Source of the DNA: Candidatus Magasanikiibacteriota bacterium
GTDB taxonomy: Bacteria; Patescibacteriota; Patescibacteriia; Magasanikbacterales; GWA2-37-8
Assembly (NCBI GenBank): GCA_943359595.1
Contig: CALRIA010000003.1
Coordinates: forward strand, 3,179 to 67,178
Length of the DNA stretch: 64,000 nucleotides
Direction: 5' to 3'
Positions 3,018 through 62,528 of the stretch are shown in pieces. The translations under genes and the position numbers were made by a program. Within the stretch, counting starts at the first letter, position 1. Each line of letters begins with the position of its first letter. The notes below the pieces were generated by a model that ran no database searches, was not told the DNA's origin, and saw only the letters and a list, made by a program, of their open reading frames with translations.

Positions 3018-3215
3018 TCAGACACGTTTCTGTCCACAACGTCCGCACACGACTTGGTGTGCCAGGTTTTGATGCCCGCACTCTAGCTTTGAAACTGACC
3101 GCATCGTCGACGTACGACAACGCCAAGTTTTCTTCTGTGAAAAATAGCCGAGTCGAATCATAGCAGCAAAGAACAGCAATACCGCCGCAATGAGCAATTC
3201 AATCTTCCAATTCAT
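3018..3215 (-). CDS. Small membrane-anchored Cys-rich (zinc-ribbon-like) protein in a GC-rich islet; hypothetical
   Basis: ATG start with upstream 'AGAGGTG' ribosome-binding site. N-terminal hydrophobic helix, then the cysteines 'WRCR...ECGH...CGRCG'. Local GC is far above the surrounding DNA. Confidence 0.4.
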   Translation of the reverse strand: MNWKIELLIAAVLLFFAAMIRLGYFSQKKTWRCRTSTMRSVSKLECGHQNLAHQVVCGRCGQKRV

Positions 3216-33927: not shown

Positions 33928-34350
33928 TTACTCGCAAGCGACGAGAACGCCGGCGAGTGGAAAAAGTCGATCGCGGAGAGCGCCCAGGTGGACGTACGGA
34001 CGACCACCCTGGATGAAAGCAAACGGCGCAAAGACGACATCTTCCGCGTCCACCACCCGAGCATTCTCGCTGATTGCAAGAACGCACCACCATTTTTTCA
34101 TCTCCTTGGGATGATTTTGAAGGACGTCGGCGAGATCGCCAACGTTCCCGAGAGTAAACCCAGCAGTCGTGAGACGCACGGCGGCTTGTTCGCCCGTCTC
34201 GTTACTGAGACACGGTTCCACCCGTAAATTCACACCAGTGCCATTGACCCAGTTGCACTTCTCGAAGAGCGACTGGAGGTTCTCACTAGAATCGGCGGCG
34301 CCACATTTGCCTTTTATTGCCAGGTTGAACTGGCCGGTTGTATTTTTCAT
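33928..34350 (-). CDS. Hypothetical protein encoded in a GC-rich islet (140 aa from the ATG; 143 aa from the GTG)
   Basis: AGGAG-N8-ATG ribosome-binding site, balanced amino-acid composition with several Cys, hairpin terminator downstream. GC is far above the flanking DNA. No recognisable family. Confidence 0.45.
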   Translation of the reverse strand: MKNTTGQFNLAIKGKCGAADSSENLQSLFEKCNWVNGTGVNLRVEPCLSNETGEQAAVRLTTAGFTLGNVGDLADVLQNHPKEMKKWWCVLAISENARVVDAEDVVFAPFAFIQGGRPYVHLGALRDRLFPLAGVLVACE

Positions 34351-34758
34351 CGTATACACTCCTGCTCACAGGTAATCCACCCCAACGAAAGACACTACCA
34401 GTGTCTAACCCCAAAATGGTACGCCTATAAGCACAACAGACTAGAAACAATTTCCAGCCTTCTTTCTATCTTATTTAGCTTAAATAAGGCAAAAAGAAAA
34501 CTAGTAATAATATTAAAGAATGGATTATTTGGCTAGAATAACAAGTGAGTATAGCATAAAATGATGATTTTGTCAATAATATGTCCTGTAAAGATGTTCT
34601 AACTGCATATTTATGGCTATGCTTAAAGAAAAAGCGACGCACTTGCGTCGCTCAATCTGTCTTGGCGGTGTGTGATTGACGTTATCAGAACTAATGTTAC
34701 AACCTCTCCATGACAACTTAAAATTCCTCATCTGCGCGCTTTAGGTAATTCGCTGTAA

Positions 34759-40398: not shown

Positions 40399-40800
40399 CT
40401 AATTTGCCATTTGTTTTTCTAATTCTTGTTCCTGTTGAGGCGTTAATGGTTGCACGGTAATTGGATTAGGGTCAGATTCGAACTTAGAGTAATAATTGTT
40501 ATCCCAATCATCTACACACAACACGCTCGCATGTTCAAAAATTCCAGGTATTTTAATTGAATGTTTTTCGGATTTAGTATTTGCTTCAGTAGTATACATA
40601 TATGGAACTGCTGCACTACCAGCGGAATATCTCCAAACACAGATAGAACCATTTCCTGTTGGGACATCAACAAAATAAGTTTCCAGCTGACTAGAGACTA
40701 CAATGTTTTTAATCATCGGATTGTTGCTTTGTGCATTATTACTATTACAGCCAGCCCCTAATAAAACAACTCCGACTAATAACAAAAATATCTTTTTCAT
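40399..40800 (-). CDS. Hypothetical lipoprotein
   Basis: Lipobox 'LLGAGC' after a signal peptide. 133 aa. Confidence 0.6.
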   Translation of the reverse strand: MKKIFLLLVGVVLLGAGCNSNNAQSNNPMIKNIVVSSQLETYFVDVPTGNGSICVWRYSAGSAAVPYMYTTEANTKSEKHSIKIPGIFEHASVLCVDDWDNNYYSKFESDPNPITVQPLTPQQEQELEKQMAN

Positions 40801-41433: not shown

Positions 41434-42303
41434 ATGCCTATGATTGAACTGTATGACTTTAAACTAATAAAGTCTGGTAAAGAAATCGAGGTGTATGTGT
41501 ATAAAACAAAGAAAATATTAAAGGGCTACACCCGAAAGAAAAACCACACCGAAGAACAAAAGATACTGATAAAAGAAAAACAAGCCCAAGCCAAACAAAA
41601 AGAAGTTGAATATATGGAACTGATGGAAGAATGGGGTTGCGAGCAAGAAGTCGCTGACTTGCACCAAACCCAAAACCAAAAAACCACCTTTTCCATATCT
41701 CGTACTAGAACCAACATTCGCCGTCTCACCAATGCTAACCCACATCTGCGTAAATTCCTCACGCTAACCTTTGCAGAAAGCACGACAGAGCTCTTAGAGG
41801 CCAACCACCTGTTCAACACCGCTATGAAACGAATACTGCGAGCCAAACCAGCCTTTGAATATATCGCCGTCGTTGAATTTCAGAAAGACATTGACTATTA
41901 CGGCAACAAAAAAGAAAAAGGCGGATCTGTTCATTACCACCTATTGTGCAACATTGTCTTGCCCGACAATGCTGATACATTTGCGTGGGAAAGACGGTTT
42001 GCGATGAAGTATTGGAAAAATGGGTTTGTGAAAATACGAGAGGTAAATACTGTAACCAATATGGGTGCGTATTTCTGTAAATATCTTGGAAAAGATATGT
42101 TTGATAAAAGAATGTTTGGCAAAAAGAAATTCTTTTGTTCTCGACAATTAAATAAGCCAGTTGAGATGACTGGCGGTAAAGCAATTAGTTTTTTCAATAA
42201 ATTTGTTAAGCCGACCCTTAAACCGATCTTTGAAAAAACTTTCACCAGTGAATATACTGGCAAGGTGGAGTATTCCGCCTACACTCTTAAAGAAGATTCC
42301 TAA
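41434..42303 (+). CDS. rep: Rolling-circle replication initiator (HUH endonuclease, pC194/Rep_1-like)
   Basis: Motif 1 'FLTLTF', HUH motif 'HYHLL', Tyr motif 'YFCKYLGKD'. Confidence 0.65.
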   Translation: MPMIELYDFKLIKSGKEIEVYVYKTKKILKGYTRKKNHTEEQKILIKEKQAQAKQKEVEYMELMEEWGCEQEVADLHQTQNQKTTFSISRTRTNIRRLTNANPHLRKFLTLTFAESTTELLEANHLFNTAMKRILRAKPAFEYIAVVEFQKDIDYYGNKKEKGGSVHYHLLCNIVLPDNADTFAWERRFAMKYWKNGFVKIREVNTVTNMGAYFCKYLGKDMFDKRMFGKKKFFCSRQLNKPVEMTGGKAISFFNKFVKPTLKPIFEKTFTSEYTGKVEYSAYTLKEDS

Positions 42304-42348
42304 TTAAGTTTAAACATATTTTTATGGCTTTCATCAACACAAAACGGT

Positions 42349-42531
42349 ATGCAATTAACGGACAATTTTGTCCTGAAATTCCAGACGATCTACGAGGCGG
42401 AATTTCATGAGAAATTGAGCTACGAAAAAGCGTATGCAGAATGTATGGACATGTTCGTCCTTGGAAAAATACTATTTAGACCTGTGAGTAAGCAGGATAT
42501 ACACGCTCTTGAATTGAGCAAAGAAAATTGA
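42349..42531 (+). CDS. Hypothetical 60-aa protein between rep and the recombinase gene
   Basis: ORF only. Position suggests an accessory or directionality factor. Confidence 0.35.
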   Translation: MQLTDNFVLKFQTIYEAEFHEKLSYEKAYAECMDMFVLGKILFRPVSKQDIHALELSKEN

Positions 42532-42542
42532 TACTATATGTG

Positions 42543-42657
42543 GGCTTACCCGATACAATACAATAAACGCTATTAAAGACTTTTTTATTTTCATACCAGA
42601 GATGGGCAGTCCTGTCCGATGAAATAGTCTTTTTTAGCTATTTGTGTCGGGTAAGCC
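42543..42657. repeat. 11-bp inverted repeat (ggcttacccga / tcgggtaagcc) bracketing about 93 bp just upstream of the recombinase start
   Basis: Read directly. Confidence 0.55.
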
Positions 42658-42692
42658 AGGGCTGTCCTTTTTTGTTTTTAATCATTTTCATT

Positions 42693-44384
<1,692 letters not shown>

Positions 44385-51084: not shown

Positions 51085-52242
51085 TTAAAAAGACAACAAT
51101 TTTTCAAATCTATCTTCCAAAATTGCAGCGCGAGCTTCTCTCATCAATTCCAACATAAAATGGATATTATGAATCGTGGCCAAACGCAAGGCAGAGACTT
51201 CTTGAGCCAAGAATAAATGATGGAGATAAGCACGTGAATAATTTTTACAAGTCAAACAGATACAGCCAATACTAATCGATGAAAAATCTTTGGCAAAAGC
51301 AGAATTTTTAATATTTATTCGACGTTTTGGATCTTGTGAAGAAGAAACAAATACCATACCATGACGCGCCAAACGTGTCGGCGCTACACAGTCAAACATA
51401 TCCGCGCCACCAGCAACTACCTTTAACAAGTCAGTTGGATCTAAACCAACACCCATAGTATAGCGTGGTTTGTTTTTTGGCATTAATGGGATCACCCAGC
51501 GTAAAATATCTTCGGTAGCTTCCATATTATAACCAATACTCTCTCCACCAATAGCGACACCATCAAAATCTAAACTGGAGATATATTTGGCTGATTCTTT
51601 GCGCAGTTCTTCATGATTAGCCCCCTGAATAATACCAAACAAAAACTGTTTATAACCATGATAGGCAGTATTTTTCTGATGCTCTATTAAACAGCGCTGC
51701 GCCCAACGATGAGTGCGTTCCATCGCTTCTTTTGTATATTTAAAATCCGCACTATCGGAAGTACATTCATCAAAGGCCATAATAATATCGGCTCCAATCT
51801 TATGCTGACACTCTATTGCAGATTCTGGAGTAAAACGATGAGTTGAACCATCAATATGAGATTGAAAAGTTACCCCATCTTCATCTATTTTCACTAATTT
51901 CCCCTGATCGCCTGTCTGCCTTTGTTCTTTTTGTAAACCCAAACTAAAGACTTGAAAACCACCAGAATCGGTTAAAATTGCCCTATCCCAATTCATAAAT
52001 TTATGCAAACCACCAGCTTGAGCAACCAAATCTTCGCCTGGACGCAGATGTAAATGATAGTTATTAGCCAAAATAATTTTTGAATCCAAAGTCAACAGAT
52101 CAGTTTGATCCAAAGTTTTTACTGTTGCCTGCGTGCCAACTGGCATAAATACTGGCGTGGGAATATCTCCATGCTCAGTATGCATTATACCGGCACGTGC
52201 ACCAGTTTTTTTATCTTCATGAATTAGCTCAAAAAATGACAT
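51085..52242 (-). CDS. tgt: Queuine tRNA-ribosyltransferase
   Basis: 'GARAGIMHTEHGDIPTPVFMPVGTQATVK', catalytic Asp region, zinc site 'CICLTCKNYSRAYLHHL'. Confidence 0.92.
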   Translation of the reverse strand: MSFFELIHEDKKTGARAGIMHTEHGDIPTPVFMPVGTQATVKTLDQTDLLTLDSKIILANNYHLHLRPGEDLVAQAGGLHKFMNWDRAILTDSGGFQVFSLGLQKEQRQTGDQGKLVKIDEDGVTFQSHIDGSTHRFTPESAIECQHKIGADIIMAFDECTSDSADFKYTKEAMERTHRWAQRCLIEHQKNTAYHGYKQFLFGIIQGANHEELRKESAKYISSLDFDGVAIGGESIGYNMEATEDILRWVIPLMPKNKPRYTMGVGLDPTDLLKVVAGGADMFDCVAPTRLARHGMVFVSSSQDPKRRINIKNSAFAKDFSSISIGCICLTCKNYSRAYLHHLFLAQEVSALRLATIHNIHFMLELMREARAAILEDRFEKLLSF

Positions 52243-52307
52243 ATTTATTTTATTTAAGCTAATTCTATGCTATTTTGCTCAAAAAATCAAGCCAAACAAA
52301 ATTTTTA

Positions 52308-52358
52308 TAAAAAACCTCCTAAAACAGCACGACCGTTCGGGAAAATCCACGAACGGTC
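52308..52358 (-). terminator. 9-bp hairpin (gaccgttcg / cgaacggtc) followed by a T-rich stretch on the minus strand
   Basis: Read directly. Downstream of the 52385..52699 ORF. Confidence 0.45.
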
Positions 52359-52384
52359 TAGCGGTTGTTGCGAATCGTGGTCGC

Positions 52385-52699
52385 CTATGAAGGCAAAACA
52401 CGATCACGGTTGTTGATTGGAGTGAAAATAAAGTTGGTGTAATCACGCCACTCGATTACAACCAAAGTGTTACTTTGGTACTTGATTTTAAGTTCAGATT
52501 TGCGCAATGAATGACCACCGCTCATTCGCCTCTTCTTTTGTACCCGAAACGGTCCTGCTTTTGAAATCATAACGAAATCCAGGTGTGTTGAACTCACTTC
52601 GATGAGCACCTCATCAAAAGCCTTAACCATACCGGCTTCTTCTCGAATATATGCCCGAAAACGCATTCCAACACATTGACCAAGCACTTTTCCAATCAT
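52385..52699 (-). CDS. Hypothetical basic protein (104 aa from the ATG) in a GC-rich islet
   Basis: AGGAG-N5-ATG ribosome-binding site at the internal Met. The ORF track's longer form starts at TTG. GC is well above the flanking DNA. No family recognised. Confidence 0.45.
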   Translation of the reverse strand: MIGKVLGQCVGMRFRAYIREEAGMVKAFDEVLIEVSSTHLDFVMISKAGPFRVQKKRRMSGGHSLRKSELKIKYQSNTLVVIEWRDYTNFIFTPINNRDRVLPS

Positions 52700-52828
52700 T
52701 GTCACTCCTGTTATAATCCCCAAATTTCGGCGCAACCACTGACGCCGAATGCAAAAATATACTATAAAAAACTATTTTTGTCAATGTTTTGATTAATAAC
52801 TATTTACATGCTAAAATGACAATTCCAT

Positions 52829-54853
52829 ATGATAAATTTTGAGCAAGATTTAAATAAAGAACAATTAGCTGTTGTCCAAAGTGGAGATGGCCCTTGCTTA
52901 GTATTGGCCGGAGCTGGTTCTGGGAAAACTCGTACGATAACATACCGTGTTGCTTATCTGTTGGAAAAAGGCGTGCCACCAGAACAAATTTTACTAGTTA
53001 CTTTTACCAACCGTGCCGCCCATGAAATGATCGAACGTGTCCAAACACTCACAAATACTGATCTACCATTGCCGTGGTCAGGAACCTTTCACCATATCGC
53101 CAATAAAATGCTTAGACAGTATGCAACTTATCTAGGATATAAAAATAATTTTACAGTTTTAGACGCCGATGATAGTCAGGCCTTAATAAAAATATGTATT
53201 AAAGAATTTAAAACTACAGACCGATTTCCTTCCGCCAAAGTTGTAGGTTCAATTATTAGTTTTGCTCGTAATTCTCAAACAAATATTGAAGAAACAATCG
53301 AAGAAAAATTTTCTGCCTGGTGGCATCTTTCTAAAACTATCGGCGATGTATCTTCTCGCTATGAACAAAAGAAAAAAGAATCAAATGTAATGGATTTTGA
53401 TGATCTGCTTATCAACTTAGCATTATTATTAAATATTCCCGGTATTCAAGAAAAATTTTCTGGCCAGTTTAAATATATTTTGGTAGATGAATATCAAGAT
53501 ACTAATAAATTACAGGCTAATATTATTGATAAATTAGCCAAAATTCATCGTAATATCTTGGTAGTTGGTGACGACGCTCAGAGCATATATTCTTTCCGTG
53601 CGGCAGATGTTAAAAATATTTTAAACTTTGAAGAAAAATATCCAGAGGCCAAAACTTTTCGTCTTGAAACTAACTATCGCTCTCATCAACAAATATTATC
53701 TTTGGCTAATGATGTTATTTCCAACAATCGTTATCAATATCCCAAACAATTAAAAGCAATAAAAGAAAAAGGGGTAAAACCAAATTTATATCCTAAAAAT
53801 GATCAATCGGATGAAGCAGAATTTGTAGTAAAAAAGATTAATGAACTATTAGAACAAGGAACTGCCCCTCACCATATTGCCGTACTTTTTCGTGCCGCCA
53901 GCCATTCCCAACTATTAGAAATGGAACTAGCCAAAGTTGGTATTCTTTACGATTACCGTGGCGGTCTACGTTTTTTTGATCGTGCTCATATCAAAGATGT
54001 ACTGAGTTATTTACGTATATTAAATAATTTATCAGATACTGCCGCTTGGTTGCGGGTTTTATTACGCGAAGAAGGTATTGGCCCAGCTGCTGCTAATAAA
54101 ATTATTGAAGCAGTCCAAAAACTAGAAAAAATCGAAAACTTAAAAAATATCGCTCAAGGATTGAGTAATAAAATTCAAACAGGCTTCAATAATTTCCTAG
54201 AAATTTTTGAAACTCTATTGGCAGCCTACATTCCAGAAAATAATCCGGGAGATTTAATTGAATCAATCATTAATTCTCGTTATAACGATTACCTAACTAC
54301 TGAATATTTAGATAGTGAAGAACGAAAAAAAGATTTAGAGCAAATGGCAATTTTTGCCAACAAACATAAAAATCTTTCCGACTTCTTGGCTGAAGCCAGC
54401 TTACAAGAATCATTTGTTAAACCAACTGCCATTAATAAAAATTCAACTGACCTACAAAAACGATTGGTTTTGTCTACCATTCATCAAGCTAAGGGTTTAG
54501 AATGGGAAGCGGTTTTTATTATTAACATCGCCAACGATGCTTTTCCCAATAGTCGCGCTGTATCTGAGCCAAATGGGCTAGAAGAAGAACGTCGTTTGCT
54601 TTATGTAGCTATCACTCGAGCAAAAAAACACCTCACTCTCACTTATCCAATGTCCACACAGAGGTGGGGGGCAGTCGCTGGCCCAAGTATATTTTTATCC
54701 GAAATAAACCAAGAATTAATTGAGGATCACTCTATCCTATCCTACAAAAGTACAGTATTTAATAATAATGACGATGATATCCAATATATACCGGAAGACC
54801 AACCATTTAAAATAAAACCAGGTAGTTTTCTACGCGATCTCGATGATTTATAA
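52829..54853 (+). CDS. uvrD: ATP-dependent DNA helicase, UvrD/PcrA/Rep family
   Basis: 'VLAGAGSGKTRTITYRVAYL' motif I, 'VDEYQDTN' motif II, 'VGDDAQSIYSFRAA' motif III, C-terminal 'TIHQAKGLEWEAVFI'. Confidence 0.9.
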   Translation: MINFEQDLNKEQLAVVQSGDGPCLVLAGAGSGKTRTITYRVAYLLEKGVPPEQILLVTFTNRAAHEMIERVQTLTNTDLPLPWSGTFHHIANKMLRQYATYLGYKNNFTVLDADDSQALIKICIKEFKTTDRFPSAKVVGSIISFARNSQTNIEETIEEKFSAWWHLSKTIGDVSSRYEQKKKESNVMDFDDLLINLALLLNIPGIQEKFSGQFKYILVDEYQDTNKLQANIIDKLAKIHRNILVVGDDAQSIYSFRAADVKNILNFEEKYPEAKTFRLETNYRSHQQILSLANDVISNNRYQYPKQLKAIKEKGVKPNLYPKNDQSDEAEFVVKKINELLEQGTAPHHIAVLFRAASHSQLLEMELAKVGILYDYRGGLRFFDRAHIKDVLSYLRILNNLSDTAAWLRVLLREEGIGPAAANKIIEAVQKLEKIENLKNIAQGLSNKIQTGFNNFLEIFETLLAAYIPENNPGDLIESIINSRYNDYLTTEYLDSEERKKDLEQMAIFANKHKNLSDFLAEASLQESFVKPTAINKNSTDLQKRLVLSTIHQAKGLEWEAVFIINIANDAFPNSRAVSEPNGLEEERRLLYVAITRAKKHLTLTYPMSTQRWGAVAGPSIFLSEINQELIEDHSILSYKSTVFNNNDDDIQYIPEDQPFKIKPGSFLRDLDDL

Positions 54854-55326: not shown

Positions 55327-56979
55327 ATGCAAATTGACGATAAAAAAATCAAACAGGTATTGTTGGATGGCAATTATGTTACTGCCGATGATATCACCAA
55401 AGCTGAAACCGCTATTAAAACTACTCAGGGTACAGTAGTAGACTGGCTTTTGTCATCTGAAATTATTAATAAAGATTTGTTAGGACAGGCTATAGCTGAA
55501 GCAGACAAAGTTAGCTACTCTGATTTAAATACCTATAAACCTAGCCAAGAACAAGTCCGTCTATTACCAGAAGATCTAGCCAAACAATTTCATGCTGTGA
55601 TATTTCGCCAAGAAGGTGACGAAATAATAGTGGCTACTGATGACCCAACTCAAGTTGAATTAACCAAAAAATTAAAAACTCTTTTTAAAGACAAAAAAAT
55701 AGTAACTACCTTTTCTTTTATCGAAGATATCGAAGAATCTTTTATTCATTATCTAAAAACTTTAGAGACACGTTTCAATGAAATTATAAAACAACAAAAA
55801 CGCATCGCCCCAGAGCTAATTGAACAAATTATTGATGATGCTGTCGCTTATCGAGCTTCTGATGTCCATTTAGAACCGCAAGAAAAAGAAGTAATAGTCC
55901 GCTTCCGTATCGATGGTGTAATGCAAGAAGCTGGACGTATCCCAAAAGATTATTATGGCAATATTTTAAACCGTATCAAAGTTCAGGCTCAACTACCAAT
56001 TGACGAACATTTTTCTGCTCAAGATGGGGCCGCCAGACAGGTGAGAGAAAAATATACTGTAGACATGCGTATTTCCATTCTACCAACTCTTAATGGAGAA
56101 AAAGTTGTAATTCGTCTTTTGTCTCAATACGTTCGCAGTTTTTCTTTTAGTGATTTAGGTCTATCTCAACACGATCAAGAATTACTTTTAAAAACAATCA
56201 ACAAACCATTTGGAATGATTTTAGTTACCGGCCCAACTGGTTCTGGGAAAACAACTTCACTTTACGCCTTATTAAAATTATTAAATAGTCCGGATGTTAA
56301 CATTACTACTATTGAAGATCCGGTCGAATATAAAATGGCTGGTGTTAATCAAATTCAAGTTAATCCACAGACCAACCTCACCTTCGCCAAAGGCTTGCGC
56401 TCTATTGTTCGTCAAGATCCAGATATTATATTAGTTGGTGAAATTCGTGATCAAGAAACAGCTGAAACAGCAGTGAACGCTGCACTTACTGGACATTTAT
56501 TACTTTCCACTTTTCATGCCAACGATGCGGCTACAGCGATACCGCGTCTTTTGGATATGGATATTGAACCATTTTTGCTATCATCTACTTTAGTAGTTCT
56601 CATCGCCCAACGTCTCGTACGAAAAATTTGCGATCAATGTCGTTATAGCGTCTCATTGAGCAAAGAGGAGATAAAAAAAACCATTTCACAAGATGTACAA
56701 AAATATTTCTCTGGAAAACATATTGTTTTATATAAAGGTAAAGGCTGTGCTGGCTGTGGCAACACTGGTTTTCGTGGTCGTACTGCCATTTATGAATTTA
56801 TCGAGGTCACTCCTGAAATTCAAGAATTAATTTTACAAAACCCTTCAACTGCTCAAATTTGGAAAATTGCCAGAAAACAAGGGTCGGTTACTTTGTTTGA
56901 AGATGGAATCGAAAAAGTAAAAAGTGGTACCACTTCTTTAGAAGAATTATTAAGAATGGCGGAACCTCCAAAATTTTAA
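55327..56979 (+). CDS. pilB: Type IV pilus assembly ATPase PilB/GspE family (second copy)
   Basis: Walker A 'GPTGSGKTTSLYA', N-terminal GSPII_E_N-like domain, C-terminal 'CDQC...CAGCGNTG'. Confidence 0.9.
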   Translation: MQIDDKKIKQVLLDGNYVTADDITKAETAIKTTQGTVVDWLLSSEIINKDLLGQAIAEADKVSYSDLNTYKPSQEQVRLLPEDLAKQFHAVIFRQEGDEIIVATDDPTQVELTKKLKTLFKDKKIVTTFSFIEDIEESFIHYLKTLETRFNEIIKQQKRIAPELIEQIIDDAVAYRASDVHLEPQEKEVIVRFRIDGVMQEAGRIPKDYYGNILNRIKVQAQLPIDEHFSAQDGAARQVREKYTVDMRISILPTLNGEKVVIRLLSQYVRSFSFSDLGLSQHDQELLLKTINKPFGMILVTGPTGSGKTTSLYALLKLLNSPDVNITTIEDPVEYKMAGVNQIQVNPQTNLTFAKGLRSIVRQDPDIILVGEIRDQETAETAVNAALTGHLLLSTFHANDAATAIPRLLDMDIEPFLLSSTLVVLIAQRLVRKICDQCRYSVSLSKEEIKKTISQDVQKYFSGKHIVLYKGKGCAGCGNTGFRGRTAIYEFIEVTPEIQELILQNPSTAQIWKIARKQGSVTLFEDGIEKVKSGTTSLEELLRMAEPPKF

Positions 56980-56988
56980 TTTTATCCC

Positions 56989-58515
56989 ATGAAACCGGAT
57001 AAAACAATGGACAATAAGATAACCTCTCCAAAAAAGAAATCTAACATTTTATCTTTTACTTTTGGTTTCACTGAAGAGAGCCAATATTTTGTAGAAAATT
57101 TATCAATGCTCTTGGCTTCCGGTATGGATATTATCGAAGCTTTAGAAGCGATTAAAGCCGAAATTAAATCTACTAAACTTATAGATATAATTGATGAATT
57201 GGTAGAAAATATTAATTCTGGTTTTAGTTTATGGCAATCTTTGGAGAAAACCAAATTACTACCACCACATATTATATCTTTAGTAAAAATCGGTGAAGAA
57301 AGTGGGCGATTACATGAAAGTTTGGCAGTTGTGGTAGTTCAACAAAATAAAAGCCAATCATTCAAGTCCAAAATACGGGCAGCCATGATGTACCCGGTAT
57401 TTGTAATGGGGGTAGCCATGACTGTTGGGATTGGCATTGCCTGGTTTATCTTACCTAAACTTTCTACAGTTTTTAGCCAACTAAATCTAAAATTACCTTT
57501 GGTCACTAGATTATTAATGAGTTTTGGCGCATTTTTATCACGCTACGGATCAATTGTAGTACCAACATTTATTATTAGTATTAGTATATTTTTCTATTTT
57601 CTATTTTTTTATCAAAAAACTAAATTTATCGGCCAAGCAATTTTATTTTCTATCCCAGGAATTAAAAACCTCATTCGCGAAGTAGAACTAGCACGTTTTG
57701 GTTATATCATGGGTACACTACTTGAAGCTGGGTTACCAGTGCTCGAAGCTTTGAACTCGTTAAAAGAGTCCGGTACTTTACGTGCCTATGGCAGAATATA
57801 TATACAATTAAAAGAAGGCATTGAAGAAGGAAAATCATTTGAAGAATGTTTTCATTCCAACCGCCACATAAAGAAACTTATCCCAACTACCATTCAGAGC
57901 TTAATTGCCGTCGGAGAACGCTCTGGCAGACTAGGAAAGATATTTTTAAATATTAGCGAGAACTACGAAAATAAAACTGAGCTAACTACCAAAAATTTAA
58001 GCGTAATTTTAGAACCGTTATTATTAGTAATTGTTTGGCTTGGAGTAGTGGCCGTAGCCATGGCGGTGATTTTACCAATTTATAGTTTAGTAGGTGGTTT
58101 AAATCAAAAACCTCAAGCTAGCAACCCACCTACTCCCACCGTAACTATTGTCGCCACACCGGTAATCAAAGTTAATAGTGCAGTCATAACCATTGGCACC
58201 CAAGGGATTGTTAATAATAGTTCAACACCTTCTTCGTTACAGACTTTAACACAAACATCGACCCCACCGGCAATTCCAACACTTACCTCCAGCATACCAA
58301 CAACAGGATTTTTAGAAGTATCACAAAATAAACTTGGCTATTTAAATATTCGTGCCACACCATCATCAAAATCTGAATTAATACGCAAAGCTTCTATCGG
58401 AGAAAAATTTAATTATATAGAAATTCAGGATGGATGGTATAAAATAATTTTATCTGCTGACCAATACGGCTGGGTCAGTTCGCAATATGTTCAAATTATT
58501 TCACCCACACTTTAA
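56989..58515 (+). CDS. pilC: PilC/GspF-family platform protein with a C-terminal Thr/Pro-rich linker and SH3b-like domain
   Basis: Two GspF-type repeats and three TM segments. After the last TM comes 'PTPTVTIVATP...TSTPPAIPTLTSS', then 'GYLNIRATPSSKSELIRKASIGEKFNYIEIQDGWYKI...GWVSSQYV', which is bacterial SH3-like. Confidence 0.8.
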   Translation: MKPDKTMDNKITSPKKKSNILSFTFGFTEESQYFVENLSMLLASGMDIIEALEAIKAEIKSTKLIDIIDELVENINSGFSLWQSLEKTKLLPPHIISLVKIGEESGRLHESLAVVVVQQNKSQSFKSKIRAAMMYPVFVMGVAMTVGIGIAWFILPKLSTVFSQLNLKLPLVTRLLMSFGAFLSRYGSIVVPTFIISISIFFYFLFFYQKTKFIGQAILFSIPGIKNLIREVELARFGYIMGTLLEAGLPVLEALNSLKESGTLRAYGRIYIQLKEGIEEGKSFEECFHSNRHIKKLIPTTIQSLIAVGERSGRLGKIFLNISENYENKTELTTKNLSVILEPLLLVIVWLGVVAVAMAVILPIYSLVGGLNQKPQASNPPTPTVTIVATPVIKVNSAVITIGTQGIVNNSSTPSSLQTLTQTSTPPAIPTLTSSIPTTGFLEVSQNKLGYLNIRATPSSKSELIRKASIGEKFNYIEIQDGWYKIILSADQYGWVSSQYVQIISPTL

Positions 58516-58519
58516 AATT

Positions 58520-58969
58520 ATGGGTAAAATAATTAAAAAAAATGGTTTTACACTTTTGGAACTACTTTTAGTAGTGGCTTTAATGGGTGTATTAGCCATC
58601 GTATCTGCTCCAATGTATCTATCTTTACAGGCAGAAAATGAAATGAGTATTACTTCGGTTACTATTGGTGATATTTTACATCGCGCTCAACTAAAATCGC
58701 AGGCGATTGATAGCGATTCTTCCTGGGGAGTAGAGATAACAAATGGATTGCTAATTATTTTTAAAGGATCGAATTTTATCAATCGCGACCAAACATTTGA
58801 TGAAAATTTTTCTTTAGCCAACACTATTAAATTATCCGGTTTAACAGAGGTTATTTTTGCTCCCTTATCTGGAATACCAAATATTGTCGGCGCAATTAAG
58901 CTACAACATTCAGACGGTCGCCAGTCACAACTAAGTATTAATGGAATGGGAATTATCAATATCCCATGA
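58520..58969 (+). CDS. Prepilin-type (class III signal) pseudopilin, GspH/FimT-like
   Basis: 'KKNG|FTLLELLLVVALMGVLAI' prepilin cleavage/methylation motif. Start placed at the Met that gives a short leader. Confidence 0.75.
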   Translation: MGKIIKKNGFTLLELLLVVALMGVLAIVSAPMYLSLQAENEMSITSVTIGDILHRAQLKSQAIDSDSSWGVEITNGLLIIFKGSNFINRDQTFDENFSLANTIKLSGLTEVIFAPLSGIPNIVGAIKLQHSDGRQSQLSINGMGIINIP

Positions 58970-58973
58970 TAAT

Positions 58974-59447
58974 ATGATAAGTATTAAAAAGAAAAAACAA
59001 TTTGAACCAAACGGTTTTTCTTTAATAGAAATTGTTTTATCTAGCGGTTTATTAGGATTGTTTGCCTTGGCTTTTTTAGGAGTGCTCGGCTTTAGCCAAG
59101 AAAGTACTTTGCGCGCTGGACAGCGTAATCGGGCCATTTTTTTGGCCGAAGAAGGTGTAGAGGCCACTCAAAGTATTCGAGATGAAAATTTTGCCAATTT
59201 AATCGCTGGTGATCATGGTCTAAAAACTGATACTAAATGGAATTTCACCAATCAGCCGGATATCATAGACGGCTTTACACGCACATTAACAATAGCTGAT
59301 GTCAATTCCCAAACCAAACAAGTTACTTCACAAGTAGCTTGGAAACAATCTGGAGGAAATCAGGTGTCAGTATCATTTTCAACCTTATTTACCGATTGGC
59401 GTACAGCAACTAGCACTGGAACTAGTACGCAATTTTGTGGAGTTTAA
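58974..59447 (+). CDS. Prepilin-type minor pilin
   Basis: 'EPNG|FSLIEIVLSSGLLGL' N-terminus. Confidence 0.7.
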   Translation: MISIKKKKQFEPNGFSLIEIVLSSGLLGLFALAFLGVLGFSQESTLRAGQRNRAIFLAEEGVEATQSIRDENFANLIAGDHGLKTDTKWNFTNQPDIIDGFTRTLTIADVNSQTKQVTSQVAWKQSGGNQVSVSFSTLFTDWRTATSTGTSTQFCGV

Positions 59448-59448
59448 T

Positions 59449-59955
59449 ATGTATTATTTAAAAAACAACCGAGGTTTTACTTTAATTGAATTATTATTAT
59501 ACACCGTGATAGCTGCCGGGTTACTTTTATCTATCACCGCCATGATCGCGCTACTCAGTCAATCTAGAATAAAAAACCAGACTATCAGTACGGTAGAACA
59601 ACAAGGAACTCAAATATTACAAATCATCAACCAAGAAATTAGAAATTCCTCAATCGTAATTTCACCCGCAAATGGCGTCAGTGGAACCACTTTACAATTA
59701 CAAGATATTAATGGAAAAAATACAACTTTTAATTTATCTAGTAGTACACTAAACGAAACAAAACTTAATCAGACAACACCAATTTCTTCCAATAATATTA
59801 TTGTAAGCAACCTAAAATTTTTAAATTTAACTCCAGACAATATCCACAATTCCATTAAAATAAATTTTACTTTAAATTATAATAATATTGCCAGCCGAAT
59901 CGAATATAATTATAGTCAAACTTTTTATGACACAGCCACGCTACGACAACCTTAA
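59449..59955 (+). CDS. Prepilin-type minor pilin
   Basis: 'NNRG|FTLIELLLYTVIAAGLLL' N-terminus. Confidence 0.7.
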   Translation: MYYLKNNRGFTLIELLLYTVIAAGLLLSITAMIALLSQSRIKNQTISTVEQQGTQILQIINQEIRNSSIVISPANGVSGTTLQLQDINGKNTTFNLSSSTLNETKLNQTTPISSNNIIVSNLKFLNLTPDNIHNSIKINFTLNYNNIASRIEYNYSQTFYDTATLRQP

Positions 59956-60340
59956 TAAAAATGGATTCGCCGTCTTGATCGGCGTCTTGATTGTCGGCGC
60001 TTTTGGCACGGCAGTAGTTTTGTATTTAATATTGTCAGGTATATATTCTTATCAAAATAGTTTTATTTTAGAGCAATCTAATATTGCCAAGACAACGGCC
60101 AATGCTTGCGCTGAAATCGCTTTAAATAAAATCCAGCTATGTTCTTCAACTGTTGGAATAGGAAGTGCTCAAATTGGAAGTTCCACCTGTAACTATGAAA
60201 TTATCAACAATGGCAACCAATCCAGAACTATACAAGTATCTTCACAAATAGGCACAATTACTAGAAAAGCAAAAATATTGGTTGACAAAATCAATCCAAA
60301 AATTACAATTAATTCTTGGCAGGAAGTAGCCTCATTCTAA
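59927..60340 (+). CDS. PilX-like minor pilin (N-terminal PilX_N-type helix)
   Basis: 'NKNGFAVLIGVLIVGAFGTAVVLYL' resembles the PilX N-terminus. Overlaps the previous gene by about 29 nt. Start uncertain. Confidence 0.55.
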   Translation: MTQPRYDNLNKNGFAVLIGVLIVGAFGTAVVLYLILSGIYSYQNSFILEQSNIAKTTANACAEIALNKIQLCSSTVGIGSAQIGSSTCNYEIINNGNQSRTIQVSSQIGTITRKAKILVDKINPKITINSWQEVASF

Positions 60341-60423
60341 CCGACACCTTAACTCTATAATTAAAAAATGATATAATGATAAGTAGTATCAAAAACTTTA
60401 AAAAATTAATTATTTATATAAAT

Positions 60424-60864
60424 ATGAAAAATATAAACAAAAAAGGCTTTACACTTTTGGAAATTTTATTGGTTGTTGCAGCTATCGCCATCTTAGCCGG
60501 CATAGTAATCGTTGCTATTAACCCTGGCAAACAATTGGCCGATACTCGTAACGCCCAAAGACAAGTTAATGTGAATACAATTTTAAACGGCGTCTACCAA
60601 TATTCTATTGATAATAAAGGCGTGCTGCCCGTTGGCATCACCCAAACTCCTACTGAAATCTGTAAGACTGGTGGCAATTGTCTTAATTTAATAGACCTGT
60701 CAGTTCTAACTACTAATGAAACATATCTAACCGCCATTCCAACTGATCCAACCGGCGTAAGTGCCAACGGCACTGGTTATAAAATTCAACAAAGTGTCAA
60801 CGGTCGCATTACCATCTCTGCACCTTCAGCCGAACAAGGGAAAACCATCAGTGTTACCAGATAA
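60424..60864 (+). CDS. pilA: Type IV pilin, PilA-like (candidate major pilin)
   Basis: 'MKNINKKG|FTLLEILLVVAAIAILAGIVIVAINPG' is a classic type IVa pilin N-terminus. 146 aa. Confidence 0.8.
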   Translation: MKNINKKGFTLLEILLVVAAIAILAGIVIVAINPGKQLADTRNAQRQVNVNTILNGVYQYSIDNKGVLPVGITQTPTEICKTGGNCLNLIDLSVLTTNETYLTAIPTDPTGVSANGTGYKIQQSVNGRITISAPSAEQGKTISVTR

Positions 60865-60878
60865 TTATTTATAAAAAA

Positions 60879-62528
60879 ATGGGCAAAAACAACTCTGGCT
60901 TTACCCTCCTAGAAATATTATTGGTAGTCGCTGCTATCGCAATTTTAGCAGGTATTGTTATTGTTGCCATTAATCCTGGTAAACAACTAGGAGCGACTAG
61001 AAATGCAGCCAGACAGTCGGATGTTAGCTCTATTCTTAATGCGGTATACCAATATTCTTTGGATAATAGCGGGTTATTTCCTCCAAACATAGATACAAAT
61101 TTAAGAATGCTCGGTACCAATGTTTCTGGTTGTGGAGTAATTTGTGGTCCAGTGGCTAATAGTAACACCAGCAGCCAATCAGTGCCAGTAAATTTTGCCG
61201 ACATTAATCAAACTACATTTGCTGGTACTTATACCAATAGCACATATAATACCAATAATAGTCTGATAAACCTTTCCTCTAACCAGATAACTGGTACTTA
61301 TACTTCAGATGTGAAAGATTCAGCCGGTGATACTACTTGGGCTACATTAGCTTGGGTGCCAAATCGTCCGACCGGGAAACCTTTACCAAATAATGCTCAA
61401 TCTGAAACCGCCTATCCAACCGGTAATGCCAATATGACTGGGGATGTATTGCTCATGCATTTAGATGAAAGCTCTGGCGCTACAAGTTTTGCTGATAATT
61501 CCGGTAGTAATAATAACGGAAGTTGTGCAAACCCAAACTGTCCTACTATGGCGACAGGCAAACTCGGTAATGCGCCAACTTTTTCTGCAGGAACCAATCC
61601 GATTTCCATACCTCATAGTGCCAGTTTAAATTTAACTAATCAATTTACTTTAGGCGCGTGGTTTTATCAAATTGCCACTTCAAGCTGGACAAGCTACGGT
61701 CACTTAATTGGTAAAGGTGTTGGTTTTAGTCCTCCTTCTGGATCTTTCTCCATCAGTGGAAATAGTTATTGGCGAGTATTCCTAGTTGACCCAGTCAAAA
61801 ATTCTTATCAGTACCAAGATGGTACTTGGATTGGATACAACTCTTGGCAACATATGGTTTTTACTTTTGATAATGGTACTGGAAAAATTTATTTAAATGG
61901 TTCTTTGCTTTCAACAAAAATCTTCTCATTCACATCTATTAGAACAAATAATCTTCCAGTACAAATCGGCTATGGACAATACAATGGTTTGGTTGATGAA
62001 GTTATTATTTTTAATCGCCCAATATCAGCTACTGAAGTAGCTGATATTTACAAACGTGGTGCTCTAAGTCTCAAACACCAAGTACGGTCTTGTGTTAATG
62101 CCAGCTGTTCCGATGGAACTTTTGTCGGACCAGATGGTACTGCCAAAAGTTATTATTCCGAAGCTAATAATAATTTAATTTCTACACCGTCGATATCTTT
62201 GACTAACATATCTAGCAATCGTTATTTTCAATATAAATCTTTTTTGGATAGCCCTGGTTCATCTATAACTCCTGAATTAAAAAGCGTAGCAATTGGTGGT
62301 ACACAATCGGTAATACAGGGTGGTGGAAATACTCCATCTTCAACGATAGCAGGTTGTCTGGACCTGTCTCCAACTCTTTCACCAACATACATTACCTCTA
62401 TTCCATTTGATCCTAAAACCGGCAGTAATAATCAAACCTATTATGCCATACAGAAAACATCTAATGGCAGAGTAAACGTACAGGCCTGCTCAGCAGAAAA
62501 CAACGAAGTTATTAATGTGACAAGATAA
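60879..62528 (+). CDS. Pilin-domain protein fused to a LamG/concanavalin-like lectin domain (candidate pilus adhesin)
   Basis: The N-terminal 60 aa are near-identical to the preceding PilA ('MGKNNSG|FTLLEILLVVAAIAILAGIVIVAINPGKQL'). The middle region is 'FTLGAWFY...YWRVFL...WQHMVFTFDNGTGKIYLNGSLL' (LamG-like). The C-terminus parallels the PilA C-terminus ('NGRVNVQACSAENNEVINVTR'). Confidence 0.8.
   Translation: MGKNNSGFTLLEILLVVAAIAILAGIVIVAINPGKQLGATRNAARQSDVSSILNAVYQYSLDNSGLFPPNIDTNLRMLGTNVSGCGVICGPVANSNTSSQSVPVNFADINQTTFAGTYTNSTYNTNNSLINLSSNQITGTYTSDVKDSAGDTTWATLAWVPNRPTGKPLPNNAQSETAYPTGNANMTGDVLLMHLDESSGATSFADNSGSNNNGSCANPNCPTMATGKLGNAPTFSAGTNPISIPHSASLNLTNQFTLGAWFYQIATSSWTSYGHLIGKGVGFSPPSGSFSISGNSYWRVFLVDPVKNSYQYQDGTWIGYNSWQHMVFTFDNGTGKIYLNGSLLSTKIFSFTSIRTNNLPVQIGYGQYNGLVDEVIIFNRPISATEVADIYKRGALSLKHQVRSCVNASCSDGTFVGPDGTAKSYYSEANNNLISTPSISLTNISSNRYFQYKSFLDSPGSSITPELKSVAIGGTQSVIQGGGNTPSSTIAGCLDLSPTLSPTYITSIPFDPKTGSNNQTYYAIQKTSNGRVNVQACSAENNEVINVTR

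Follow-up and report, generated by a model that had tools for sequence, protein, structure and literature searches.

A lineage-restricted small basic protein and its probable monocistronic gene, with structured and conserved mRNA ends, between tgt and uvrD of a Candidatus Magasanikiibacteriota bacterium

In this study, we examined a GC-rich islet (positions 52300-52745, hereafter islet 3) in a 64,000-nucleotide stretch of contig CALRIA010000003.1 from a Candidatus Magasanikiibacteriota bacterium, the whole of which is referred to as the window. The islet lies in a 586-bp gap bounded by tgt (51085-52242, minus strand) and uvrD (52829-54853, plus strand). Most likely, with a probability of about 0.75, islet 3 forms a self-contained gene whose monocistronic messenger RNA (mRNA) has structured and conserved ends and encodes a lineage-restricted small basic protein. 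What had looked like an ambiguous GC spike becomes a defined gene model composed of a promoter, a 5' hairpin, a Shine-Dalgarno (SD) sequence, an open reading frame (ORF), a 3' untranslated region (3'UTR) and a terminator. The object is of an ordinary kind, a lineage-specific small-protein gene, and its mRNA architecture is unusually well defined and strongly conserved. To our knowledge, post-transcriptional control is essentially unstudied in this uncultured AT-rich lineage, and islet 3 offers a clean comparative case in which both UTRs of a bacterial mRNA are under selection and in which its 5' end may interact with the 3' end.

The coding part of the islet comprises the following features:

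52385..52699, minus strand: protein-coding ORF of 104 amino acids (aa) counted from ATG, stop codon within the coordinates (codon-position identity, homologues, AlphaFold model)
52705..52709, minus strand: Shine-Dalgarno sequence AGGAG, 5 nt before the ATG and unpaired in the predicted 5'UTR fold

The initial annotation had reported a minus-strand ORF preceded by AGGAG-N5-ATG and encoding a very basic product, and both statements agree with what we found: the protein, which includes KKRRMSGGHSLRK, has a pI of 10.07 with 18 Lys and Arg against 10 Asp and Glu residues. An upstream TTG start would give 116 aa. In most relatives a purine-rich GGAG/GGAGG-like site occupies the same place as AGGAG of the window.

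A word-indexed search of 5.8 billion proteins matched the ORF to nothing but itself. Exhaustive phmmer comparison with 1.84 billion representatives detected four true homologues (95-120 aa, 43-50% identity), and a profile search added a fifth, giving a family of six members including the query. One further candidate, P0002 (1,882 aa, highly repetitive, each repeat about 85 aa long), was discarded as a repeat-driven artefact, since its E-value of 1e-24 came from 11 repeated weak matches to residues 48-83 only. As judged from these searches, the family is confined to six closely related uncultured bacteria and is without known relatives.

In a codon-aware alignment of the six lineages, identity at codon positions 1, 2 and 3 was 0.57, 0.68 and 0.36, respectively. 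All 15 pairs of lineages had lower pN (0.28-0.46) than pS (0.68-0.89), the latter being saturated; 16 residues were invariant, indels kept the frame, and the frame was open over 95-104 codons in every lineage despite the saturated divergence. This comparison indicates that the ORF is a protein-coding gene under purifying selection. The codon-position pattern and the purifying selection therefore argue against the suggestion in the initial annotation that the islet might be an unrecognised RNA gene, for which Rfam also gave no match: a scan of 52243-52828 with Rfam 15 returned nothing at gathering thresholds, and the best permissive hit was an irrelevant snoRNA (E = 0.68). ARAGORN found no tRNA or transfer-messenger RNA (tmRNA) over islet 3. 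RNase P, tmRNA, 6S and large non-coding RNAs were considered and rejected, as nothing of the kind appeared in Rfam (gathering thresholds or E <= 10) or ARAGORN and the codon signature was decisive.

The mRNA ends were compared in an alignment of the six intergenic regions, with four-fold sites as the neutral yardstick. Identity at four-fold sites was 30% in the islet 3 ORF and 40% in tgt, compared with 73% for the back-to-back promoters, 69% for the 5' hairpin and 79% for the CAACAACYGC tract plus terminator; by this measure conservation of the non-coding ends greatly exceeds the neutral level. The elements concerned are:

52789..52817, plus strand: uvrD promoter, TTGATT-17-TAAAAT, TG-extended (promoter scan, conservation)
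52756..52784, minus strand: small-gene promoter of the sigma-70 type, TTGACA-17-TATATT (promoter scan 11/12), back to back with the uvrD promoter
52726..52749, minus strand: 5'-terminal stem-loop UUCGGCG-UCAGUGGUUG-CGCCGAA (predicted in every lineage; covariation)
52733..52739, minus strand: loop heptamer GUGGUUG (GCAGUUG in five relatives), complementary to positions 52361-52367 of the 3'UTR
52385..52414, minus strand: lineage-specific C-terminal extension of the protein, INNRDRVLPS (relatives stop about 9 codons earlier, at TGA or TAA)
52374..52407, minus strand: 3'UTR hairpin A, found in all six lineages with stems that differ in sequence and a 3' arm, GGCGAC, that is conserved (overlaps the ORF end in the window)
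52361..52370, minus strand: single-stranded, conserved tract CAACAACCGC that separates hairpin A from the terminator; most relatives have CAACAACUGC
52321..52358, minus strand: intrinsic terminator, a 9-bp perfect stem with inner G-C pairs and loop GGAUUUUCC, followed by GUGC and UGUUUU
52262..52290, minus strand: tgt promoter, TTGATT-17-TAGAAT (promoter scan; conserved in five lineages), downstream of the small-gene terminator

At the upstream end, AATCAAAA..TTGAC.AAA is invariant in the six lineages, the -10 box of the small-gene promoter is TG-extended in four of the five relatives, and its -35 box is only 4 nt away from that of uvrD. Because tgt has a promoter of its own beyond the terminator, the small gene appears to be monocistronic. 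An antisense promoter-like site at 52689-52717 (plus strand) was also noticed; the relatives do not conserve it, and it was taken as chance.

Compensatory changes were found in five of the six pairs of the 5' stem-loop, where 97% of the cells of the alignment are paired. The 9-bp perfect hairpin terminator of the initial annotation is likewise present (GACCGTTCG/CGAACGGTC at 52331-52358) and is lengthened by two G-C pairs. It is a GC-rich stem-loop followed by a U-run, as expected of an intrinsic (rho-independent) terminator, with compensatory changes in four pairs, 97% of cells paired and most of the U-run invariant. A simple consensus terminator scan did not list it because the U-run comes after a 2x2 internal loop and an outer G-C clamp. 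In hairpin A, columns 457-466 pair with 481-490 according to RNAalifold, again with compensatory changes. AACAAC and GC of the adjoining tract are invariant in the six lineages, and the tract has its sole exact copy in the window here. The 98-nt stretch including the 3'UTR has a folding energy of -42.1 kcal/mol (compared with shuffles, z = -5.8). Of the cells in the tested structure as a whole, 97.9% are paired, compared with 22-49% in slid controls, and none of 500 shuffles reached the covariation score. On this comparative evidence, the 5' and terminator hairpins covary.

The window lineage has lost the stop codon at which its relatives terminate, so that translation would run about 9 codons into hairpin A and the protein has 104 aa rather than about 95. 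AlphaFold gives residues 101-104 a predicted local distance difference test (pLDDT) score below 50. A second near-copy of the CAACAACCG tract, at 52406-52415, coincides with the lost stop and may reflect a small duplication.

The unit also keeps its place in the genome. Divergent uvrD is upstream in five of the six family loci, the contig of the sixth ending before that point, and tgt is downstream in five of the six. Where contigs are long enough, the downstream genes also include those for a GT4 glycosyltransferase, a SPOUT methyltransferase and an aminoacyl-tRNA synthetase. At the locus L092 (ENA k141_101732, 246-876), uvrD is kept in divergent orientation and neither the tgt promoter nor tgt follows, an opposite-strand gene being found instead; the promoter-to-terminator unit therefore seems to stay intact through rearrangement. 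In an attempt to enlarge the family, JGI metagenomes were scanned for a DNA pattern made of the conserved promoter and loop; this returned one true match (L096, the lineage already known from L088) and seven chance matches. A tgt-based scan of GTDB genomes for syntenic relatives gave, among the matches listed, only Firmicutes tgt genes of about 50% identity. The contig of one relative carries DUF5671 and baeRF-family genes. Together with the 34% GC, the LOOT RNA and the pilin gene cluster of the window, this would fit a small-genome, AT-rich bacterium of Patescibacteria-like affiliation.

These elements suggest how the message might work. Transcription would start about 3 nt before the 5' hairpin, a position placed from the -10 box. 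The 5'-terminal stem-loop and the two-hairpin 3' end could then shield the mRNA from 5'- and 3'-end-dependent decay, and with an open Shine-Dalgarno sequence this would make a stable and well-translated message. In addition, the GCAGUUG loop at the 5' end might pair with CAACUGC of the 3'UTR and unite the two ends, and the beta-barrel product, with its invariant Arg/Arg/Tyr ... Trp-Arg set, might bind a polyanion.

The end pairing is a possible but tentative part of this proposal, for which we would put the chances somewhat below even. The GCAGUUG loop complements CAACUGC of the 3'UTR tract exactly, the corresponding pair in the window being GUGGUUG and CAACCGC, and the 7-bp pairing is retained in all six lineages (100% paired). 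The window lineage shows one compensatory change from A-U to G-C and one change from C-G to U-G in this helix. No other copies of the 5' loop motif beyond chance were found in the window.

Two known mRNAs are useful for comparison. In Bacillus subtilis, a 14-bp interaction between the 5'UTR and 3'UTR of hbs mRNA modulates RNase Y cleavage in the 5'UTR; hbs encodes the small basic protein HBsu from a message with a structured 5'UTR and a strong SD, and the stability of this mRNA is tightly coupled to translation initiation (PMC5737220). Both hbs and islet 3 are monocistronic messages for a protein of about 90-100 aa, and joining of the mRNA ends as in hbs is what the loop-tract complementarity might bring about. 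The putative pairing of islet 3, however, is 7 bp long and located in a hairpin loop, whereas that of hbs is at the RNase Y site. The proteins differ as well: the HU fold is not all-beta, and the islet 3 protein is unrelated to HU and predicted to be all-beta. The second case is icaR mRNA of Staphylococcus aureus, whose 3'UTR pairs with the Shine-Dalgarno region of the 5'UTR, masks the SD and represses translation (PMC3868564). Islet 3 mRNA resembles it in that a segment of the 3'UTR is complementary to its own 5'UTR; unlike in icaR, the SD lies outside the complementary segment, and therefore a stabilising or architectural role would be more likely than repression.

As to base composition, the initial annotation had described a GC content well above the flanks, and this is correct, the contrast being modest in size. 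The GC content of 52300-52745 is 43.5%, compared with 34.3% in the whole window, 38.3% in tgt and 34.9% in uvrD, which places it at the 98.8th percentile of 446-nt windows. The initial annotation had proposed a genome-wide survey of GC spikes; within the window, the islet ranked only eighth among the 300-nt GC peaks, and several ordinary coding stretches were as high. Part of its islet-like look is due to two low-GC promoter spacers (18-20% GC) that bracket it. Inside the small-gene unit the UTRs have about 51% GC and the ORF 41.9%, and the excess thus comes from the structured UTRs together with GC-enriched synonymous sites.

The latter are unusual in their own right. GC at third codon positions (GC3) of the window ORF is 0.39, the second highest of 56 ORFs in the window, against 0.267 +/- 0.042 for 32 host genes; host-like codon usage, which the initial annotation had named among the findings that would refute its idea, was accordingly not found (0.39 against 0.27 for the host). 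In six of six lineages the ORF has higher GC3 (0.39-0.63) than its neighbours (0.24-0.40). Expression-linked codon bias was rejected as the cause, as S6, SSB and EF-P in the window have an ordinary GC3 of 0.25-0.28, and both G- and C-ending codons are enriched in the islet 3 ORF. Since the lineages all show the enrichment although their divergence is saturated, selection probably maintains it, with mRNA structure or stability as the most plausible target; the somewhat lower stability of synonymous-codon shuffles than of the native sequence lends this weak support. Fast protein evolution combined with synonymous GC that is kept high, in a small protein family that lacks detectable relatives, is an unusual pattern.

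The predicted protein fold is consistent with a genuine gene product. AlphaFold2, run on the six-sequence alignment, gave a pLDDT of 83.6 and a predicted TM-score (pTM) of 0.75 for a model with an N-terminal helix and seven consecutive up-and-down beta-strands, in which residues 49-62 form a basic loop of low confidence, so that the protein is predicted to be a small beta-barrel. No family of Pfam, NCBIfam, PHROGs or PADLOC matches any of the six members, and a profile search of PDB with the family had a best match of E = 1. With Foldseek, the best E-value against PDB was 0.033 (TM-scores 0.40-0.45), and a match to an unnamed protein in BFVD had E = 3.5e-3.

Several known folds were compared with the model. 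An Sm-like identity, suggested by motif resemblance, was not supported: when the family was compared by hhalign with three Sm proteins from archaea (one identical to PDB 1i4k and one matching 1i81), the probability was 0.16% over 13 aligned columns, and Pfam LSM or Hfq was found in none of the six members at E <= 5. The Sm/LSm/Hfq fold consists of an N-terminal helix and a five-stranded, strongly bent beta-sheet that assembles into a ring, whereas the islet 3 protein has seven predicted strands and about 45 residues between the two motif-like segments. The PH-like superfold is a seven-strand beta-sandwich closed by a C-terminal helix; the helix of the islet 3 model is instead N-terminal. PH-like, EVH1 and lipocalin-like barrels reach TM-scores of only 0.35-0.45 and show no sequence signal, so the resemblance is one of general architecture. 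Type I toxins of the hok kind are small hydrophobic membrane peptides, unlike these proteins of 95-104 aa with GRAVY (grand average of hydropathy) values of -0.04 to -0.47, a pI of 8-10 and a predicted all-beta globular fold, whose composition is that of soluble proteins; no search for an antisense RNA partner was made. That the product binds a polyanion, with RNA as the first candidate and possibly its own UTR hairpins, is a doubtful guess prompted by the invariant residues R13, R15, Y17, W84 and R85.

Several observations weigh against the interpretation of islet 3 as a small-protein gene with functional mRNA ends. The family sample of six sequences is thin, and the transcription start, the stabilising role and the translation level are all inferred from sequence alone. 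In a single sequence the loop-tract complementarity is not significant, being equalled in 5-37% of shuffled 3'UTRs, and both covariation changes in this helix come from one lineage. Within the coding sequence RNAalifold recovered only weak, often broken helices. In addition, the islet 3 protein is 43-50% identical between the same lineages in which tgt, uvrD, GT4 and SPOUT are 79-94% identical. Such low identity shows either weak constraint or diversifying pressure, which the proposed mechanism leaves unexplained.

A quite unlikely alternative holds that the unit is dual-function or centred on RNA, with the transcript or a 3'UTR fragment (hairpin A, the CAACAACUGC seed and the terminator) acting as a regulatory RNA and the protein being secondary or additional. 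The better conservation of the non-coding ends (69-79%) than of the protein (43-50%) would fit such a unit, as would a 3' end laid out like a small RNA with a seed plus terminator and a GC3 that stays raised in all lineages, a trait of structured RNAs in AT-rich genomes. Shuffles of synonymous codons were slightly less stable than the native sequence in six of six lineages (z from -0.6 to -2.6, combined about -3), which points in the same direction. However, the ORF is clearly under protein-level selection, the coding region contains no conserved covarying structure, and Rfam has no matching family. The complement of the CAACAACUGC seed occurs seven times in the window against 5.3 expected, which is no enrichment.

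A related idea, which we consider unlikely, is an RNA-protein pair in which the clade-specific beta-barrel binds the hairpins of its own end-paired mRNA as a form of autoregulation, or in which the 3'UTR is released as a small RNA with the CAACAACUGC seed. If this were true, selection of the whole transcript for GC-rich structure would explain the high synonymous GC and the RNA ends that are better conserved than the fast-evolving protein.

The initial annotation had named a horizontally transferred cassette as one of two possibilities. Stated more generally, islet 3 would be a foreign ORF, or alleles of the ORF would be swapped through recombination in the conserved flanks. The raised GC3 and the low identity of the ORF compared with its neighbours, given above, are what such a history could produce, and the highly conserved flanks could act as recombination arms. 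Yet the locus is the same across the family lineages, and no donor pool is apparent: six family members were found among about 15 billion proteins, and tblastn against phages, plasmids and IMG/VR found no match to the islet 3 protein. The flanks contain no integrase or other recombinase, attC-like site or direct repeats, the nearest recombinase being 8 kb away in a separate element. Moreover, as synonymous sites are saturated, an old donor-derived composition should have decayed unless selection keeps it. Exchange of this kind is thus very unlikely, and since the family loci keep the uvrD/tgt neighbourhood, a recent cassette in particular is unlikely on the evidence of gene order. Hardly credible is a non-coding RNA gene with a fortuitous ORF: the region is GC-rich within an AT-rich genome, shows strong folding on either strand (z = -3.3 and -4.1) and has covarying hairpins, but against this stand the 95-104 open codons, the low third-position identity (0.36 against 0.68 at second positions), the confident predicted protein fold, and the failure to find an Rfam family, a tmRNA or anything RNase-P-like.

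The initial annotation had grouped islet 3 with two other islets of the window into one class. All three do contain a small minus-strand ORF, but BLASTP aligns none of their proteins and the DNA shares only short chance words, and the three islets are unrelated genes rather than a class of cassettes. Islet 1 (3018-3215, minus strand) encodes 65 aa with a hydrophobic N-terminal segment, likely a transmembrane helix when read by eye, and, at its C-terminus, a weak match to a zinc ribbon (Pfam E = 0.011). Islet 2 (33928-34350, minus strand) encodes 140 aa, and no GC spike in the window is stronger (57.7% over 300 nt); a leader of roughly 190 nt extends to a promoter-like site near 34548-34575. 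The islet 2 protein has one distant homologue, P0008 (184 aa, 51% identity), both ending in GVLVACE, which indicates that this ORF is a real protein. Some 45 residues at the N-terminus of P0008 are missing from the islet 2 copy, whose exact sequence the protein collection does not contain; judging from this comparison, the gene may be truncated or foreign. A foreign origin may still apply to islets 1 and 2 because of their strongly non-host GC3 (0.50 and 0.60, respectively).

A probable mobile element of the window looks quite unlike islet 3. At 41434-44384 (plus strand), a Rep protein (Rep ORF2/G2P, PF23343, E = 3e-14) is followed by a large serine recombinase (domains Resolvase, Recombinase and Zn_ribbon_recom) whose gene overlaps tRNA-Ser (44267-44352, minus strand) at its 3' end. 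The Rep gene has the highest GC3 of the window (0.42) and the recombinase gene the third highest (0.36), and this region is a probable integrated mobile element, as judged from its gene content. Between an ORF ending at 40800 and the start of Rep at 41434 lies a full-length LOOT RNA (RF03000; 40879-41004, minus strand; 84.5 bits against a gathering threshold of 46.4). At 55327-62528 (plus strand), an ORF of 550 aa resembling a PilB-type ATPase is followed by several with a GFTLLE(I/L)LLV pilin-type N-terminus, as read by eye rather than by hidden Markov model (HMM).

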